From: Candidatus Parcubacteria bacterium
GTDB taxonomy: Bacteria; Patescibacteriota; Minisyncoccia; Minisyncoccales; JAGMDC01
NCBI GenBank assembly: GCA_023128895.1
Contig: JAGMDC010000003.1
Span: forward strand, 70,514-134,513
DNA: 64,000 bases
Reading direction: 5' to 3'
A model generated the notes under the pieces. The model saw nothing but the letters and a program-made list of their open reading frames with translations. It searched no databases and was not told where the DNA came from. The position numbers and the translations under genes were made by a program. Shown here one piece after another: positions 26,401 through 40,821 of the stretch. Every line of letters begins with the position of its first letter. Within the stretch, counting starts at the first letter, position 1.

Positions 26401-26415
26401 AAATAAAAAAATGAT

Positions 26416-26586
26416 GAGCGAGGCAACAAGCCCTCAATGGCAAACATCGGAGGCGCCTGAGCATGGTCCGAGCCCCCACACCTAATTTAGGTGTGGGGGC
26501 TCGGTCAGGCGCTGAGATATTAGACCCCAAAATCCCGCTGGGATTTTGAGGGTCGGTGCCTTGAGGACTTCGTTGCCGAGCGAATT
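26416..26586. repeat. ~170-nt structured intergenic element, copy 1 (between dnaK and dnaJ)
   Basis: Terminal ~20-bp inverted repeats GAGCGAGGCAACAAGCCCTCAA/TTGAGGGCTTCGTTGCCgaGCG, with internal hairpins CCGAGCCCCCACACC...GGTGTGGGGGCTCGG and CAAAATCCC-GCT-GGGATTTTG. Confidence 0.85.
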
Positions 26587-32085: not shown

Positions 32086-33122
32086 TGTTTTCTCAAGTAC
32101 TCTGCCGCTTTTTCCGGCTCAATAGTTGAAATCTCTATGCCAGTGCAAAGTTCAAACCCAGCCCAGGTAGATGTTTTTGGCAGAATAGACAAATGCCAGT
32201 GATAAAAATCGTAATTTTTCCCGTCGCACGGCGCTGTATGAATAAAAAAATTATACGACGGATTATTCAACCCTTTATAAAGTTTATGCATTGCCATTTG
32301 CAACACTTCCGCAAGAGCCCATTTCTGTTTCTCGCTGATTCTCTCAAAATAAGCAGAATGCTGTTTGGGCGAAATCACGATTTCAAACGCCATTCTTGAC
32401 GCAAAAGGACATAAAGCTACAAAATATTTATTCTCAAACACAATTCTTTTCTTATTTTTAATATCCCATTTGTTCATTAAGCAGTGAACGCATTTTTTAC
32501 TATCCTTAAAAAATTTTTTGGAGCAGTTTAGCCCTGACTGGATGTCTGGATCCATAATAGGAATAGCGATAATCTGGGAATGCGGATGCGCTATGGAAGC
32601 GCCAGCTTCCGGACCATGATTGTGAAAAATAGAAACATAATTAACGAATTTTTCTTTCATCAAATCAAGATATCTGTCTTGATAAACATCAATTACTTCT
32701 TTAATTTGCGTTTGGGAAAATTGCGCTATCTGCTTTCTATGGTCTTTTGTTATTATTACTTCATGAAAACCCGCGGCGTTCATCAAATGATAAGGGCCTT
32801 CTGTTCTTTTATTTATTTTTTCATTATAAATAAACGCCGGATATTTATTCGGCACTGACACTACAGACCATCGTTTAGGAATCCCGCCTTTTGCGGTTAT
32901 ATCAACCTTCTTGCCGTCATAAAAAACCATCAAAGGTTTCTCCTGTTTGGAAAGATGGCAAAACACGCAATCTCGCGGAGAAACATGCTCTATAATTTTC
33001 TTGTCCTTTTTAAATGTTTCAGGCCTTCGCGCGCGGCCAGTGGCAATGACCACCCAATCTCCGCTTACTAAATCAAAACGAAGTTCTGACGGAAATTTTG
33101 CTTTTTTACTTTTATTTATCAT
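32082..33122 (-). CDS. galT: galactose-1-phosphate uridylyltransferase
   Basis: HIT-like HPHSQIIAIP; zinc ligands CVFC..H. Confidence 0.85.
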   Translation of the reverse strand: MINKSKKAKFPSELRFDLVSGDWVVIATGRARRPETFKKDKKIIEHVSPRDCVFCHLSKQEKPLMVFYDGKKVDITAKGGIPKRWSVVSVPNKYPAFIYNEKINKRTEGPYHLMNAAGFHEVIITKDHRKQIAQFSQTQIKEVIDVYQDRYLDLMKEKFVNYVSIFHNHGPEAGASIAHPHSQIIAIPIMDPDIQSGLNCSKKFFKDSKKCVHCLMNKWDIKNKKRIVFENKYFVALCPFASRMAFEIVISPKQHSAYFERISEKQKWALAEVLQMAMHKLYKGLNNPSYNFFIHTAPCDGKNYDFYHWHLSILPKTSTWAGFELCTGIEISTIEPEKAAEYLRKQ

Positions 33123-33852
33123 CGTACTTTTTCAACACCAAATTTTTTCTAATGTGGAAAACATCTATCAGCATTTTTACCATATTTTTGAAACCCACTG
33201 TGCTTGTAGTGTCGTTTATCCATCTCACTGGTACTTCTTTTATCTCATAACCCATTTTTTTTGCCAAGACCAAAATTTCAACATCAAAAGCAAAACGGTC
33301 AATTTTACACTTTGGAAAAATATCCTCTACCGACTTTGCGGTGAATCCCTTAAACCCGCATTGAGTATCCCAAATTCCCCTTAACCCTGAAACAATTTGG
33401 ACAATTAAATTAAAAATATTGCCAAGTATTATTCTCCACCAGGGCTGAGACACGGCAATATCCGCGCCTTTTATATCCCGCGAGCCAATCACGACTTCGC
33501 GTCCCTTGTCAAATTCAGGCCACATCTTTTCTATGTGGTTTATAGTTGTAGAATTATCAGCGTCCATAAACACGCAAAATTCTCCTTTTGCTTCCAACAT
33601 TCCCTGCCGCGTCACAAAACCTTTCCCGCGATTTTTTTTATTATCAATCAAACGCAAATTTTTAATTTCCGGTAAAACCTGGCTCACTTCCTCTGCTGTC
33701 TTGTCCGGCGAACCGTCATTAACAACAATAATTTCATAAGTATATTTTTGGCTCCTCAAATACTCATCAATTTTTTTTAAGGTATCTCCAATACGACCCG
33801 CTTCTTTATAAGCCGGAATTATAACTGACAAATGAATTTTTTTATTATCCAT
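33112..33852 (-). CDS. family 2 glycosyltransferase (dolichyl-phosphate sugar transferase-like)
   Basis: LSVIIPAYKE ... VVNDGSPD, DAD motif. Confidence 0.85.
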   Translation of the reverse strand: MDNKKIHLSVIIPAYKEAGRIGDTLKKIDEYLRSQKYTYEIIVVNDGSPDKTAEEVSQVLPEIKNLRLIDNKKNRGKGFVTRQGMLEAKGEFCVFMDADNSTTINHIEKMWPEFDKGREVVIGSRDIKGADIAVSQPWWRIILGNIFNLIVQIVSGLRGIWDTQCGFKGFTAKSVEDIFPKCKIDRFAFDVEILVLAKKMGYEIKEVPVRWINDTTSTVGFKNMVKMLIDVFHIRKNLVLKKYDDK

Positions 33853-33883
33853 AATAATTTTTTTATTATTTATCTATTGTACC

Positions 33884-33919
33884 AAAAAAATATAAAAAAA
33901 AGTAGGGTGATAAAACCCT
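33884..33919 (-). terminator. rho-independent terminator (AGGGT-GATAAA-ACCCT + U-run)
   Basis: Seen directly after the stop of the 33921..34490 gene. Confidence 0.65.
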
Positions 33920-33920
33920 T

Positions 33921-34490
33921 TTAATCAATTATATTTTTTACTTGTTCTAAAATCTCTCGCAACTCATTCAATGTGCTGCCATTATGGAACGCTCTAATCT
34001 GCCGTATTACTGAAAAATAACTGGGTATTGCTTGTTCCAATAAACCTGTGCGCAAAAATCTGTCTATTGAACCAGTCTGCATAGTAATATCAGCGTAAAC
34101 ATAGCTAATTCTCTCTTGAATATCCGCAATTTGGCGTACTATATTGTTTCCTTGGAAAGCCGATTCTAATTTATTCAAATGCATTATTATCTTTTGCAGC
34201 CAATCAATGTATCCCTCTAAAATACTTGTGTCTATGTGTAAAACATCTTTATCGCTGACTTTTGTGAAAAAATATTGATTAAACGTTTCAATCTGTTCAA
34301 TCATTTTTTCTAAAAAAACAACAAGTCCTTGCGCGTAATATCCTTCATCAATCATTTTTTTCACAAAAATATTGAATGGCATCAAATCTAAATCTGCTTC
34401 TGTAATTTTTCTAAATCCTGAAATCGATTTTTCTGTTTTTGCCTTTTTATGTACGCCAAAACTTTCAAAAATCTTTTTCATTTCTCCCAT
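33921..34490 (-). CDS. hypothetical protein
   Basis: ORF. Confidence 0.5.
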   Translation of the reverse strand: MGEMKKIFESFGVHKKAKTEKSISGFRKITEADLDLMPFNIFVKKMIDEGYYAQGLVVFLEKMIEQIETFNQYFFTKVSDKDVLHIDTSILEGYIDWLQKIIMHLNKLESAFQGNNIVRQIADIQERISYVYADITMQTGSIDRFLRTGLLEQAIPSYFSVIRQIRAFHNGSTLNELREILEQVKNIID

Positions 34491-34630
34491 AATTATCCCC
34501 TCCTATTTTATGATTTATTGAATGTACTATCTCAAACTTAACAAACTATCTTGAATTTGTAAAGAAAAAATTCAAAAAATAAGTAAAAAAATTCGGGGAA
34601 AGAATTAATTCAAGCCCCATGATTGCGATT

Positions 34631-35026
34631 TTACCAATCGATTACCTCTATGAAGGGATTTTCCGCGCGCATGATCCGAGTCCAAATGTCTATGACTCTC
34701 CGAGGATGGACAGTTTTCCACTCTCCTTTCAAAATAACTCCTATCACACTAACCCTTCTCCCTGGAGTTAAATCTCCAAAATATATATTATTCCAAAGAT
34801 TATAGCTTTCTCCCTCTACTGCCAGATAGTAAGGGCCCAACCTTATCGCTTCACTGAGACACATTCCTTCGCGAGGCATTATTTGGATAATCAATCCTCC
34901 TGCTTTTTCCAATACTTCCATGCAAGAAAGTATTTCTTCTATCATTTGTTCTGTTGTTATCTCTATCTTTTTCTTCCCTTTTATCTCTTTTCCCACCTTT
35001 TTCACTTCTTCCAATATTTTTCCCAT
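34631..35026 (-). CDS. hypothetical small protein, unit 3 of the tandem array (paralogue of 35571..35960)
   Basis: Shares the N-terminal pattern MGxxLxxxxEV..K..KKxT.EAMIEEIxxCM with the 129-aa paralogue; C-terminus divergent. Confidence 0.6.
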   Translation of the reverse strand: MGKILEEVKKVGKEIKGKKKIEITTEQMIEEILSCMEVLEKAGGLIIQIMPREGMCLSEAIRLGPYYLAVEGESYNLWNNIYFGDLTPGRRVSVIGVILKGEWKTVHPRRVIDIWTRIMRAENPFIEVIDW

Positions 35027-35171
35027 ATTTATCTATCACATCCTAATTTGTGCTAAATTTAGTATTACTTATCGTCTTATTTCTGTCAAGACTTTGGTGT
35101 CATGAGTTTGAAAAAATAAGTAAAAAAATTCGGGGAAAAAATTGATTCAATCCCCATGTTCACTATATGTG
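35027..35171 (-). repeat. repeat unit: terminator-like hairpin + remnant of the map 3' end (carrying TTGACA) + RBS region
   Basis: Near-identical to 35427-35570 and partially to 34578-34630 and 35961-36040. Confidence 0.8.
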
Positions 35172-35426
35172 TTAATCCCAAAACTTTTTTGTTGCCCTTA
35201 TTCCGAACTCTGGTTTGCCTTCTCTTGTGACTATGATAAATTCAAACTTATCTTCTCGTTTGACTAAAATCGAATTTATGGCTTGCATCATTTCTTCTTC
35301 ACTAAATGATGTAAATTGTTGCGCGCTTAAATTCTTTTTTATCTCCTCACAAGTGACAACCCCTTTGGAATACACTATTATTTTCATTACGGCTCTTCTA
35401 AGGCCAACATTTTTTGGTTCTGCCAT
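35172..35426 (-). CDS. hypothetical small protein, unit 2 of the tandem array
   Basis: ORF preceded by the same duplicated promoter/RBS module. Confidence 0.55.
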   Translation of the reverse strand: MAEPKNVGLRRAVMKIIVYSKGVVTCEEIKKNLSAQQFTSFSEEEMMQAINSILVKREDKFEFIIVTREGKPEFGIRATKKFWD

Positions 35427-35570
35427 ATTACACCCCTTAATTTATGCTAAATTTAACATAAACTAATCCTTGATTTCTGTCAAGACTTTGGTGTCATGAG
35501 TTTGAAAAAATAAGTAAAAAAATTCGGGGAAAGAATTAATTCAAGCCCCATGATTGCGCCGCCACAAAAA
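35427..35570 (-). repeat. repeat unit (as 35027-35171)
   Basis: Contains CATGACACCAAAGTCTTGACAGAAATCAAGGATTAG, copied from the map C-terminus (..HGPKVLTEIKD*). Confidence 0.8.
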
Positions 35571-35960
35571 TCATCTCACTATTTTTACACTAAAATTCTC
35601 GGAAAGAATTATGTCTTCCCAAATTTTTCTCGCTTGGGCAAGCACTGGGGTCCCTTTCTCCCATAATCGATCCAACCCGCCAGCAAATATTTCATATAAC
35701 TGTTGTTCTAAGGTATCTGAAGTTTGAACTAACAAGTTGCTCCACCCAGCATGAGGTATAGACAAATAATTCCCTGCTATTCTTATCTTTCGTTTCGAAT
35801 CCATCGAATCAACTATCGCAATCTCTAACACTTTTCCAATTTCCGCTGCTTTAGCCATACACTTCATGATTTCTTCTATCATCGCTTCAGATGTCAATTT
35901 TTTTCTCGATTTTTTTTCTTTTTCCACGACTTCATTAATTTTATCTAACACATTTCCCAT
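35571..35960 (-). CDS. hypothetical small protein, unit 1 of the tandem array
   Basis: ORF immediately downstream of map. Confidence 0.6.
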   Translation of the reverse strand: MGNVLDKINEVVEKEKKSRKKLTSEAMIEEIMKCMAKAAEIGKVLEIAIVDSMDSKRKIRIAGNYLSIPHAGWSNLLVQTSDTLEQQLYEIFAGGLDRLWEKGTPVLAQARKIWEDIILSENFSVKIVR

Positions 35961-35998
35961 TTTTTATCACCCCTAATTAGTGCTAAATATAGCATAAA

Positions 35999-36751
35999 CT
36001 AATCCTTAATTTCTGTCAAGACTTTGGGACCATGAGCAGTAATTGCGATAGTGTGCTCAAAGTGCGCGCAGACAGACCCGTCAATTGTTTGAAAAGCATG
36101 CCCGTCTGGACCTCTTCTAATTTTCCAATCCCCTGTAGTGAGCATTGGCTCAATGCAAAAAACCATTCCCGGTTTAATAACCGCGCCAGCGCGGCGCTTG
36201 CCGTAATTCAAAACTTCTGGCTCTTCGTGAAGTTCTTTGCCAATCCCATGCCCGCATAGTTCGCGCACAACTCCGAATCCTTGGTCTTCAGCGTGGCGCT
36301 GGATAGTGTTCCCAATATCTCCAAAAGTGTTTCCTGGACGCGATTTCTTAATTCCCCTCTTCAGCGCTTTCTTTGTCGCCCTTATTAAACGCAAAATTTC
36401 CGGAACAACTTCTCCAACTGGAACAGTTATTGCCATATCAGAAAGATATCCTTTATATTTCAAACCTAAATCTAAGGTTATAATATCTCCCTGCTTTAAC
36501 TTATAATCACACGGAACTTCGTGGACGATTGACTGATTTACTGACGAACACAATGCCGCTGGATACCCGCCATAACCCTTGAATGCCGGTTCTGTGTTAT
36601 ATTTAAAAATAAGGTCCTCTGCGGCCTTATCTAATTGTTTGGTAGTAATCCCCACATCAACCATCTGCTCCAATTGTTTCACAATTTTTGCCAAAATTTT
36701 ACCCGCTTCCGCCATTATTGCGATTTCCTGTTTGGTTTTTATAGAAATCAT
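35999..36751 (-). CDS. map: methionine aminopeptidase type I
   Basis: Pita-bread fold metal ligands (D..D..H..E..E). Confidence 0.9.
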   Translation of the reverse strand: MISIKTKQEIAIMAEAGKILAKIVKQLEQMVDVGITTKQLDKAAEDLIFKYNTEPAFKGYGGYPAALCSSVNQSIVHEVPCDYKLKQGDIITLDLGLKYKGYLSDMAITVPVGEVVPEILRLIRATKKALKRGIKKSRPGNTFGDIGNTIQRHAEDQGFGVVRELCGHGIGKELHEEPEVLNYGKRRAGAVIKPGMVFCIEPMLTTGDWKIRRGPDGHAFQTIDGSVCAHFEHTIAITAHGPKVLTEIKD

Positions 36752-37407: not shown

Positions 37408-37417
37408 AATGATAAAT

Positions 37418-37589
37418 GAGCAAGGCAACAAGTCCTCAATGGCAAACATCGGAGGCGCCTGAGCATGGTCCGAGCCCCTACACCTAAATTAGGTGTGGGG
37501 GCTCGGTCAGGCGCTGAGATATTAGACCCCAAAACCCACCTTAGGGGTTTGAGGGTCGGTGCCTTGAGGGCTTCGTTGCCTTGCGAATT
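37418..37589. repeat. ~170-nt structured intergenic element, copy 2 (between secY and adk)
   Basis: Same architecture as 26416-26586 with compensatory substitutions in stems. Confidence 0.85.
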
Positions 37590-40613: not shown

Positions 40614-40636
40614 ATTTTAACTTAAAAATAAATAAT

Positions 40637-40803
40637 GAGCGAGGCAACAAGCCCTCAATGGCAAACATCGGAAGCGCCTGAGCATGGTCTCCGAGCCACG
40701 CCTACTGGCGGGGCGAGGAGTCAGGCACTGAGATATTAGACCCCAAAATTCCGCTGGGAATTTTGAGGGTCGGTGCCTTGAGGGCTTCGTTGCCTTGCGA
40801 ATT
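40637..40803. repeat. ~170-nt structured intergenic element, copy 3 (between rplF and rplR)
   Basis: Outer helix and hairpin A conserved; hairpin B replaced by a different GC-rich hairpin. Confidence 0.85.
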
Positions 40804-40821
40804 GTTATAAACTACAAAACC

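Follow-up and report, generated by a model that had tools for sequence, protein, structure and literature searches.

A candidate lineage-specific array of small gene units bearing copies of the map 3' end in a Candidatus Parcubacteria genome

Gene order and repeated junctions downstream of map

We analyzed the region downstream of map, the gene for methionine aminopeptidase (MetAP), in a stretch of 64,000 nucleotides (the window) from contig JAGMDC010000003.1 of a Candidatus Parcubacteria bacterium. The minus-strand gene order was rplO, secY, adk, map, g129, g84, g131, g189, a GT2 glycosyltransferase gene and a GalT-like gene (Table 1). g129, g84 and g131 are small open reading frames (ORFs) arranged in tandem; g129 and g131 were assigned to one protein family (A) and g84 to another (B). 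The junctions J0 to J3, numbered from map onward, contain repeated sequence that includes copies of the map 3' end. Proteins identical to the array ORFs are annotated as hypothetical in 'Candidatus Parcubacteria bacterium'.

The 17-mer AAAGTCTTGACAGAAAT was present in exactly three copies in the window (36009-36025, 35473-35489 and 35079-35095), against a chance expectation of about 0.55 matches even with three mismatches allowed. A 34-nt hairpin with its T-run also occurred three times (0, 3 and 0 mismatches in J1, J2 and J3, respectively; expected number 0). A repeat search revealed two families of three copies each, one of 67 nt (78-87% identity, copy spacings 536/394 nt) and one of 57 nt (86-98% identity, copy spacings 537/394 nt). 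The source segment at the end of map, 35999-36036 (CTCATGGTCCCAAAGTCTTGACAGAAATTAAGGATTAG), is 38 nt long and holds the last 12 codons and the stop codon. The map-end copy reads CTCATGG..GTC TTG ACA GAA ATT AAG GAT TAG. On the coding strand, the order within a junction was the hairpin GGGGCTTGAATTAATTCTTTCCCC, seven to eight T, the map-end copy, a -10-like hexamer, a dyad, a ribosome-binding site (RBS) and ATG.

A promoter scan returned three promoter-like sites, TTGACA-17 nt-TATGCT/TATGTT/AATACT, each matching 10 of 12 consensus positions and with a spacer inside the 16-18 nt range of sigma-70-type promoters, and the -35 hexamer TTGACA corresponds to Leu-Thr codons of map. An A/T-rich dyad, CTAAATTTAG, lies over the -10 box upstream of a strong RBS; J0 carries the dyad TGCTATATTTAGCA between its -10 hexamer and its RBS, and a further dyad, GAATTAATTC, lies inside the hairpin. 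When 10 junctions of three lineages were aligned, GTCTTGACAGAAAT was invariant. The hairpin stem consists of four G-C pairs and three inner pairs (-6.5 to -9 kcal/mol, z-scores -1 to -1.9) and is followed by an invariant U-run of 7-8, making it a weak candidate terminator. The original prediction for this locus, made from the sequence alone, had described three promoter-gene-terminator units after map, with ORFs of 129, 84 and 131 amino acids, repeats present three times each and a -35 box built from map codons. The unit structure and the origin of the -35 hexamer were confirmed. As for the terminator, the same hairpin and T-run did recur in each unit, but the stem is weak and the terminator scan did not detect it.

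Two other identities for these elements were rejected. The junction does not appear to be a known RNA, as Rfam gave no match in 33800-36200, and the hairpin/terminator did not fit an insertion resembling a miniature inverted-repeat transposable element (MITE), with CATG duplications in map-like sequence, unless a further 7-nt deletion is supposed.

The motif CGCAATCAT begins two of the three window junctions that contain a hairpin (J1, 35550-35558; J3, 34619-34627). It stands just before many hairpins, also in the related loci L105 (640-650) and L102 (9157-9172), and L102 and L103 have it as a perfect dyad, CGCAAT-C-ATTGCG. In map itself a similar sequence, ATCGCAAT(T/C)A, lies 20 nt ahead of the duplicated segment; the likeness may be chance, or the motif may be a second map-derived remnant or a binding site.

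Table 1. Coordinates of genes, junctions and dispersed repeats (positions in the window).
Feature	Position	Strand	Details
map (methionine aminopeptidase, 250 aa)	35999-36751	minus	Pfam Peptidase_M24, E=6e-52
Junction J0	35961-36036	minus	-35 TTGACA 36019-36014 in map end; -10 TATGCT 35996-35991; RBS AGGGGTG; upstream of g129
g129 (family A, 129 aa; KAW43_01280)	35571-35960	minus	ORF
Junction J1	35427-35570	minus	CGCAATCAT; hairpin + T-run 35516-35549; map-end copy 35463-35500; -35 35483-35478; -10 TATGTT 35460-35455; RBS
g84 (family B, 84 aa)	35172-35426	minus	ORF
Junction J2	35027-35171	minus	hairpin + T-run 35122-35155; map-end copy about 35068-35106; -35 35089-35084; -10 AATACT 35066-35061; RBS
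g131 (family A, 131 aa)	34631-35026	minus	ORF
Junction J3	34491-34630	minus	third hairpin + T-run 34585-34618, then g189 promoter region
g189 (189 aa, lineage-specific)	33921-34490	minus	homologs restricted to array-bearing lineages
GT2 glycosyltransferase, far edge of insertion	33112-33852	minus	Pfam Glycos_transf_2, 3e-28, and synteny
Second repeat, secY-adk spacer	37416-37589
Second repeat, dnaK-dnaJ spacer	26414-26586
Second repeat, rplF-rplR spacer	40625-40815

Related arrays and sequence exchange between junctions

In the closest GTDB relatives (MetAP 53-70% identical), the GT2-GalT pair was found 50-166 nt after map, with no array between. Because map adjoins GT2-GalT in these relatives, the three units together with g189 (about 2.1 kb) are read as a lineage-specific insertion between map and the GT2 gene. 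GC content, at 0.32-0.39, falls inside the local range of 0.27-0.47, with no skew. In no copy of the locus did Pfam detect an integrase or recombinase domain in the genes called within ±10 kb. The infA-rpmJ-rpsM genes lie 4.4-5.2 kb downstream of map in several relatives (L023, L029, L030 and L042), and none of infA, rpmJ, rpsM, rpsK and rpoA was detectable in the whole window. The classical adjacency of map and infA is already broken in the clade by GT2-GalT and other genes. The array had been predicted to occupy the expected site of infA/rpmJ; this placement was not upheld, the relatives having GT2-GalT past map instead.

Array-bearing loci were compared among three lineages, all of them from related samples and several represented by short contigs. 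The window has the unit order A-B-A'. A sister species, L102, carries four units, A-B-A-B, between map and a g189 homolog, each with the hairpin/T-run and a map-end copy; its MetAP is 84% identical to that of the window, with a synonymous divergence (dS) of map of about 1.2. The sister strain L105/L006, whose map is 92.5% identical in nucleotides, has map followed by P0006 (A''), P0002 (A, the g129 ortholog) and B. This comparison, which had been suggested as a check on copy number, thus revealed that both unit number and unit content differ (A-B-A', A''-A-B and A-B-A-B). All three lineages had the same left boundary, CTCATGG, for the map-derived segment, which points to a single ancient founding duplication.

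The MetAP C-terminus ends in a conserved (V/I)-L-T motif, and Leu-Thr was present within the last 12 residues in 31 of 35 relatives. TTGACA stood at the map end in 12 of these 35, and extra map-end copies in none. Since relatives without copies already have the V/I-L-T motif, map is taken as the source of the copies, and the direction of copying as from map to the units. Between the two species, the promoter segment was 75-90% identical, whereas 59% of the synonymous sites in map differed. Because the segment is so much more conserved than the synonymous sites, it is under purifying selection.

Within each genome, the junctions also resembled one another in changes specific to that lineage. 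The four L102 junctions were 90-97% identical and all had ATACAGG/TTAATCT, while the genes between them had diverged unevenly: A1 and A2 were 81% identical (dS 0.42), and B1 and B2 only 41%. In the sister strain, the junctions flanking P0006 were 97% identical, whereas P0006 and P0002 shared only 41% of residues, and the strain's altered map end (CCACAAGG, including a Pro-to-His change) was common to map and the first junction copy. Comparison of the window with strain L008 (99.4% identical) revealed the same four substitutions in J1 and J2; the J1-g84-J2 block was about 4% diverged, against a background of 0.1-0.5% and 0-0.3% for g129 and g131. Selection alone cannot produce lineage-specific changes common to several copies, and gene conversion or allelic replacement, with the junctions as homology, is therefore required. 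These patterns show junctions that have been homogenised within each genome, evidently by gene conversion, with the coding end of map included.

We further infer that unequal crossing-over between junctions lies behind the differences in unit order and number. The original prediction had spoken of swappable payloads. Content does vary, but only two payload families were present, with no recombinase and no attC-like site. These findings favour exchange between junction repeats, by homologous recombination and gene conversion, over dedicated cassette machinery.

Differences between hairpins were also observed within the sister species, on comparing contigs of different samples, L102 (8720-8783/9156-9185) and L103 (2765-2800/3178-3207). 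One L102 hairpin contained a 20-nt tandem duplication and another had lost its left arm, and both were intact in L103. These indels reflect either strain polymorphism from misaligned recombination or assembly error.

Proteins encoded by the insertion

We regard the array ORFs as real, fast-evolving coding genes: the ratio of nonsynonymous to synonymous divergence (dN/dS) was 0.13-0.6 in all comparisons of array ORFs, indels kept the frame, and the RBSs were strong. Over the same species split, dN of the array proteins was 0.2-0.4, compared with 0.11 for MetAP.

The BLASTP alignment of g129 and g131 (26% identity, E=1e-6) spans both proteins entirely, with conserved positions throughout (T23, E30, M35, W73, N75, W114 and I117, the last two C-terminal). 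g129 and g131 are full-length paralogs, and the original description of the first and third proteins as wholly different in their C-terminal parts has to be corrected. Members of family A are 126-141 amino acids long. An exhaustive profile search (1.84 billion representatives of about 15 billion proteins) yielded only four real clusters of the family; the sole other match, the Ig-like repeat protein P0007, was discarded as a false positive. g129 and its ortholog P0002 gave a dN/dS of 0.41, and g131 was 50-54% identical to A1 and A2 of L102. An AlphaFold2 (AF2) model of g129, built on a 3-sequence alignment, had the topology H-H-E-E-E-H-H-E with a mean confidence (pLDDT) of 59, and the family A profile had no match at E<0.1 among PDB sequences. 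No signal peptide was found in the array proteins. Our best guess for A, a weak one, is an alpha/beta protein of the cytoplasm that experiences diversifying pressure, for example in conflict or host interaction.

Family B proteins have 84-87 amino acids, and g84 is basic (isoelectric point 9.2). Profile-profile comparison of g84 with family A by hhalign gave a probability of 0.13%, in agreement with the earlier statement that no relationship links the middle protein to its two neighbours, and a test of B as a frame-shifted derivative of A was negative. L102 has two homologs, B1 and B2. The single-sequence AF2 model of g84 showed three helices and a hairpin (pLDDT 58). Its Foldseek matches were Fur, histone H1 and the cullin WHB domain, with TM-scores of 0.45-0.51 but E>1; Pfam gave Sigma70_r1_1, DUF2551 and FokI_D3 below threshold. 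These sub-threshold matches are mostly winged-helix-type domains. The family B profile had no match at E<0.1 among PDB sequences. B may be a winged-helix protein; our best guess for its function, again a weak one, would be that this small protein binds DNA at the conserved junction dyads.

Word-index searches with g129, g84 and g189 gave matches only in the same lineages, and family B and g189 were confined to the same few metagenomes. None of A, B and g189 had a match above threshold in Pfam, PHROGs, PADLOC or NCBIfam. The array proteins contained no toxin-antitoxin or defence domains, and no toxin or secretion genes were present near the array. The genes carry separate promoter and terminator signals and no toxin-antitoxin domain, which places them outside the type II toxin-antitoxin class. 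Pattern and tblastn searches of viral and phage collections with A, B and g189 were negative, and a scan of a viral collection with the junction pattern gave zero matches. A metagenome scan with the same pattern gave eight matches, all rejected as chance (single copy, no map gene nearby).

g189 always flanks the array. It was 48% identical to g194 of L102, and the terminator scan placed at 33904-33919 a terminator of its own, different from the junction hairpins. Its promoter region (34491-34575) was conserved in comparison with L102 10200-10269 (p<0.0005) and weakly resembled the junction promoter (TCTTTACA-AATTCAAGA-TAGTT; local alignment against shuffled sequences, p about 0.015). It may therefore have begun as an earlier unit of the series that has since decayed.

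Every protein of the insertion begins with Met-Gly, Met-Ala or Met-Pro (starts at 35958-35960, 35424-35426, 35024-35026 and 34488-34490). From such N-termini the initiator Met is removable by methionine aminopeptidase, the product of the upstream map, and ATGGGA/ATGGCA forms part of the conserved junction end. The occurrence of these starts beside map is probably coincidental.

Explanations of the array and comparison with known systems

We consider it likely that the locus is a lineage-specific tandem segmental-duplication array, the junctions of which undergo concerted evolution and provide the homology for the gain, loss and replacement of units. In this scheme, the 3' Val-Leu-Thr codons of map, GTC TTG ACA, would have supplied the -35 box. 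An ancestral segmental duplication, as suggested by the shared boundaries, would have run from CTCATGG inside map to just past the hairpin/T-run, resulting in a portable junction of about 150 nt with terminator, 38 nt of map end, -10 box with dyad, and RBS. Such a junction now stands ahead of every unit. Two unrelated, lineage-restricted families, A and B, fill the units, and the homology of the junctions would most likely mediate unequal crossing-over and allelic replacement, leading to the gain, loss and exchange of units. Separate transcription of each unit from its map-derived promoter is probable, and transcription may stop, perhaps in part, at the weak hairpin/T-run.

Several points weigh against this explanation. 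Recombination was deduced from few genomes, namely three lineages from related samples with several short contigs. The promoter and terminator activities of the junctions are predicted from sequence features, and the hairpin was not significantly more stable than shuffled sequence and escaped the terminator scan. Simple duplication also leaves unexplained why the flanks of family B are the same as those of family A, given that no frame-shift relation connects the two. Both AF2 models are of low confidence (pLDDT 58-59), so the functional part is a guess, and Foldseek searches of PDB and BFVD gave no significant fold match for the models of g129 or g84.

The array was weighed against other accounts of the repeats. 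Site-specific cassettes, whether integron-like or small integrative elements, might target the map 3' end and use the map-end copy as attachment site. A partial copy of a gene 3' end at unit boundaries is the expected product of integration into such an end, and the intergenic repeats in every unit, the differing content between lineages and the resemblance of CGCAATCAT ahead of the hairpin to map's ATCGCAAT(C/T)A would all be in keeping with it. We nevertheless judge such cassettes very unlikely: an integrase or recombinase was missing within ±10 kb in every locus copy, the hairpin GGGGCTTGAATTAATTCTTTCCCC has no attC-like R''/R' cores, GC is not skewed, and the payloads belong to two families only, which lack relatives in viral collections. 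Moreover, integration would leave n+1 map-end copies for n units, whereas n were found, the stretch past the last hairpin being at best a degenerate copy; this count fits tandem duplication and not serial site-specific integration. Plain duplication and divergence without ongoing recombination, the flanks staying alike through selection on promoter, RBS and terminator, also seems quite unlikely. Purifying selection certainly explains part of the similarity, since the junction is conserved past synonymous divergence, and the CTCATGG boundary is common to all lineages. Such an account fails to accommodate the lineage-specific substitutions common to copies (ATACAGG/TTAATCT in L102, the four J1/J2 changes and the sister-strain map end), the near identity of the junctions flanking P0006 in spite of the distance between P0006 and P0002, and the very different divergence of A1/A2 and B1/B2 in L102.

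A further proposal, compatible with the segmental-duplication array, is that A and B form a conflict module, such as a toxin/antitoxin pair or an immunity-like array, under diversifying selection. A and B are found together, in alternation, in each of the three lineages; the two families are fast-evolving and lineage-restricted; B is small, basic and possibly winged-helix; and recombinase-associated orphan immunity (rAID-1) arrays, which such a module would resemble, likewise have intergenic repeats (Ross et al., 10.1101/471110). This proposal is doubtful in view of the lack of any PADLOC, Pfam, NCBIfam or PHROG family match, the presence of a promoter and terminator for each gene in place of a bicistronic operon, the variable A:B ratio (2:1 in the window), the dN/dS below 1 in every pair compared and the absence of toxin or secretion genes nearby. 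That the repeats are a mis-assembly of the metagenome bin is barely credible. Short contigs (L003-L005, L011 and L012) do break exactly at the junction repeats; however, long contigs that differ in sample and in assembly pipeline (ENA, 108,865 bp and 11,104 bp; JGI, 31,872 bp; NCBI, 375,150 bp) contain the full array in identical form, a diverged species has the same architecture, and the structure was also present in separate assemblies from ENA, JGI and Logan.

The segmental-duplication array would operate by ordinary recombination, and tandem paralog arrays with concerted evolution are already known; the twist is a coding-derived promoter that was then multiplied. Such a promoter, arisen in coding sequence (the Val-Leu-Thr codons of MetAP), copied out and reused for new genes, would provide a clean natural example, in which the parts that evolve in concert, and through which the gene array recombines, are intergenic regulatory modules and not ORFs. 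For Patescibacteria (the candidate phyla radiation), the locus would represent a small hypervariable site inside an otherwise streamlined, syntenic region. The three orphan protein families, without relatives among about 15 billion proteins, are candidates for lineage-specific interaction or conflict functions. A more speculative extension, which we think unlikely, is that the junction is a recombinase-free 'expression cassette platform' for the orphan genes (A, B and g189), with payloads that form a hitherto undescribed conflict or host-interaction system and B as its junction-binding regulator. If this were true, the map-end module would give a genome-reduced episymbiont both expression signals and homology arms, allowing it to capture, multiply and exchange fast-evolving orphans at one hot spot, and gene conversion would feed changes back into the MetAP C-terminus.

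In ribosomal-protein and secY-adk-map clusters, internal promoters occur in which the 3' end of one gene serves the next. The array resembles these in having a sigma-70-type -35 element inside the coding end of map that could drive the gene downstream; at this place TTGACA is found in 12 of the 35 relatives, and differs in that the coding-derived promoter seems to have been copied out of the gene and multiplied as non-coding DNA. In Mycoplasma, vsp/vlp genes stand in tandem with near-identical 5' regulatory regions and differing coding regions. Their products are surface lipoproteins that have a signal peptide and internal repeats, and the genes are switched by site-specific inversion or by slippage in poly-A tracts. 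By contrast, the array proteins have no signal peptide, and neither an invertase nor a phase-variable tract was observed.

Most integron cassettes lack a promoter, and they are functionally diverse, whereas the three to four units of the array each have a promoter-like site and comprise two families. Like integron and rAID-1 arrays, the locus combines small diverse genes, repetitive intergenic sequence and strain-variable content. Integrons have an adjacent IntI-type tyrosine recombinase with attI and Pc, and each cassette ends at its 3' side in an attC site, an imperfect palindrome with R''/L''-L'/R' cores (GTTRRRY). No IntI-type recombinase was present at the locus, nor were such cores found in the hairpin GGGGCTTGAATTAATTCTTTCCCC. 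rAID-1 arrays have an XerD-family recombinase at the head, repetitive intergenic sequences, immunity-gene ORFs and skewed GC (10.1101/471110); the array has no XerD-family recombinase, no similarity to known immunity genes and no GC skew. The nearest documented analogue, by its architecture, is the lpl tandem paralog cluster of Staphylococcus aureus, in which a conserved segment in each unit is the site of homologous recombination, strains differ by rearrangement and by gain or loss of units, and the evolving unit includes the intergenic regions (Tsuru & Kobayashi 2008, PMC2568036). Both loci combine tandem paralogs (here of family A) with a segment repeated in every unit, here at the junction. 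Both also show rearrangement and incongruent histories of their parts, seen here, in three lineages only, as the differing unit orders, the 81% and 41% identities of A1/A2 and B1/B2, and the roughly 4% divergence of the B block. In lpl, the conserved segment lies inside the ORF and half-genes are shuffled, whereas in the array it is the terminator-promoter junction that is conserved and whole ORFs that would be exchangeable. The array also differs from lpl in that its junction derives from coding sequence, the 3' end of the housekeeping gene beside it, and that two unrelated families use the same junction.

A second, unrelated repeat was observed in the window. It is G+C-rich, about 175-195 nt long and present in three intergenic spacers with 85-92% identity. 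A search of Rfam gave no family above threshold, the best being the Moco riboswitch (E=0.086; 17 bits, where the gathering score is 36). The consensus folds into a long branched hairpin (-90 kcal/mol) with 71 pairs, four of which have compensatory changes. In L008, the dnaK-dnaJ and rplF-rplR copies were cleanly absent and the secY-adk copy was 86% identical. These features suggest that the second repeat is a MITE-like mobile element.

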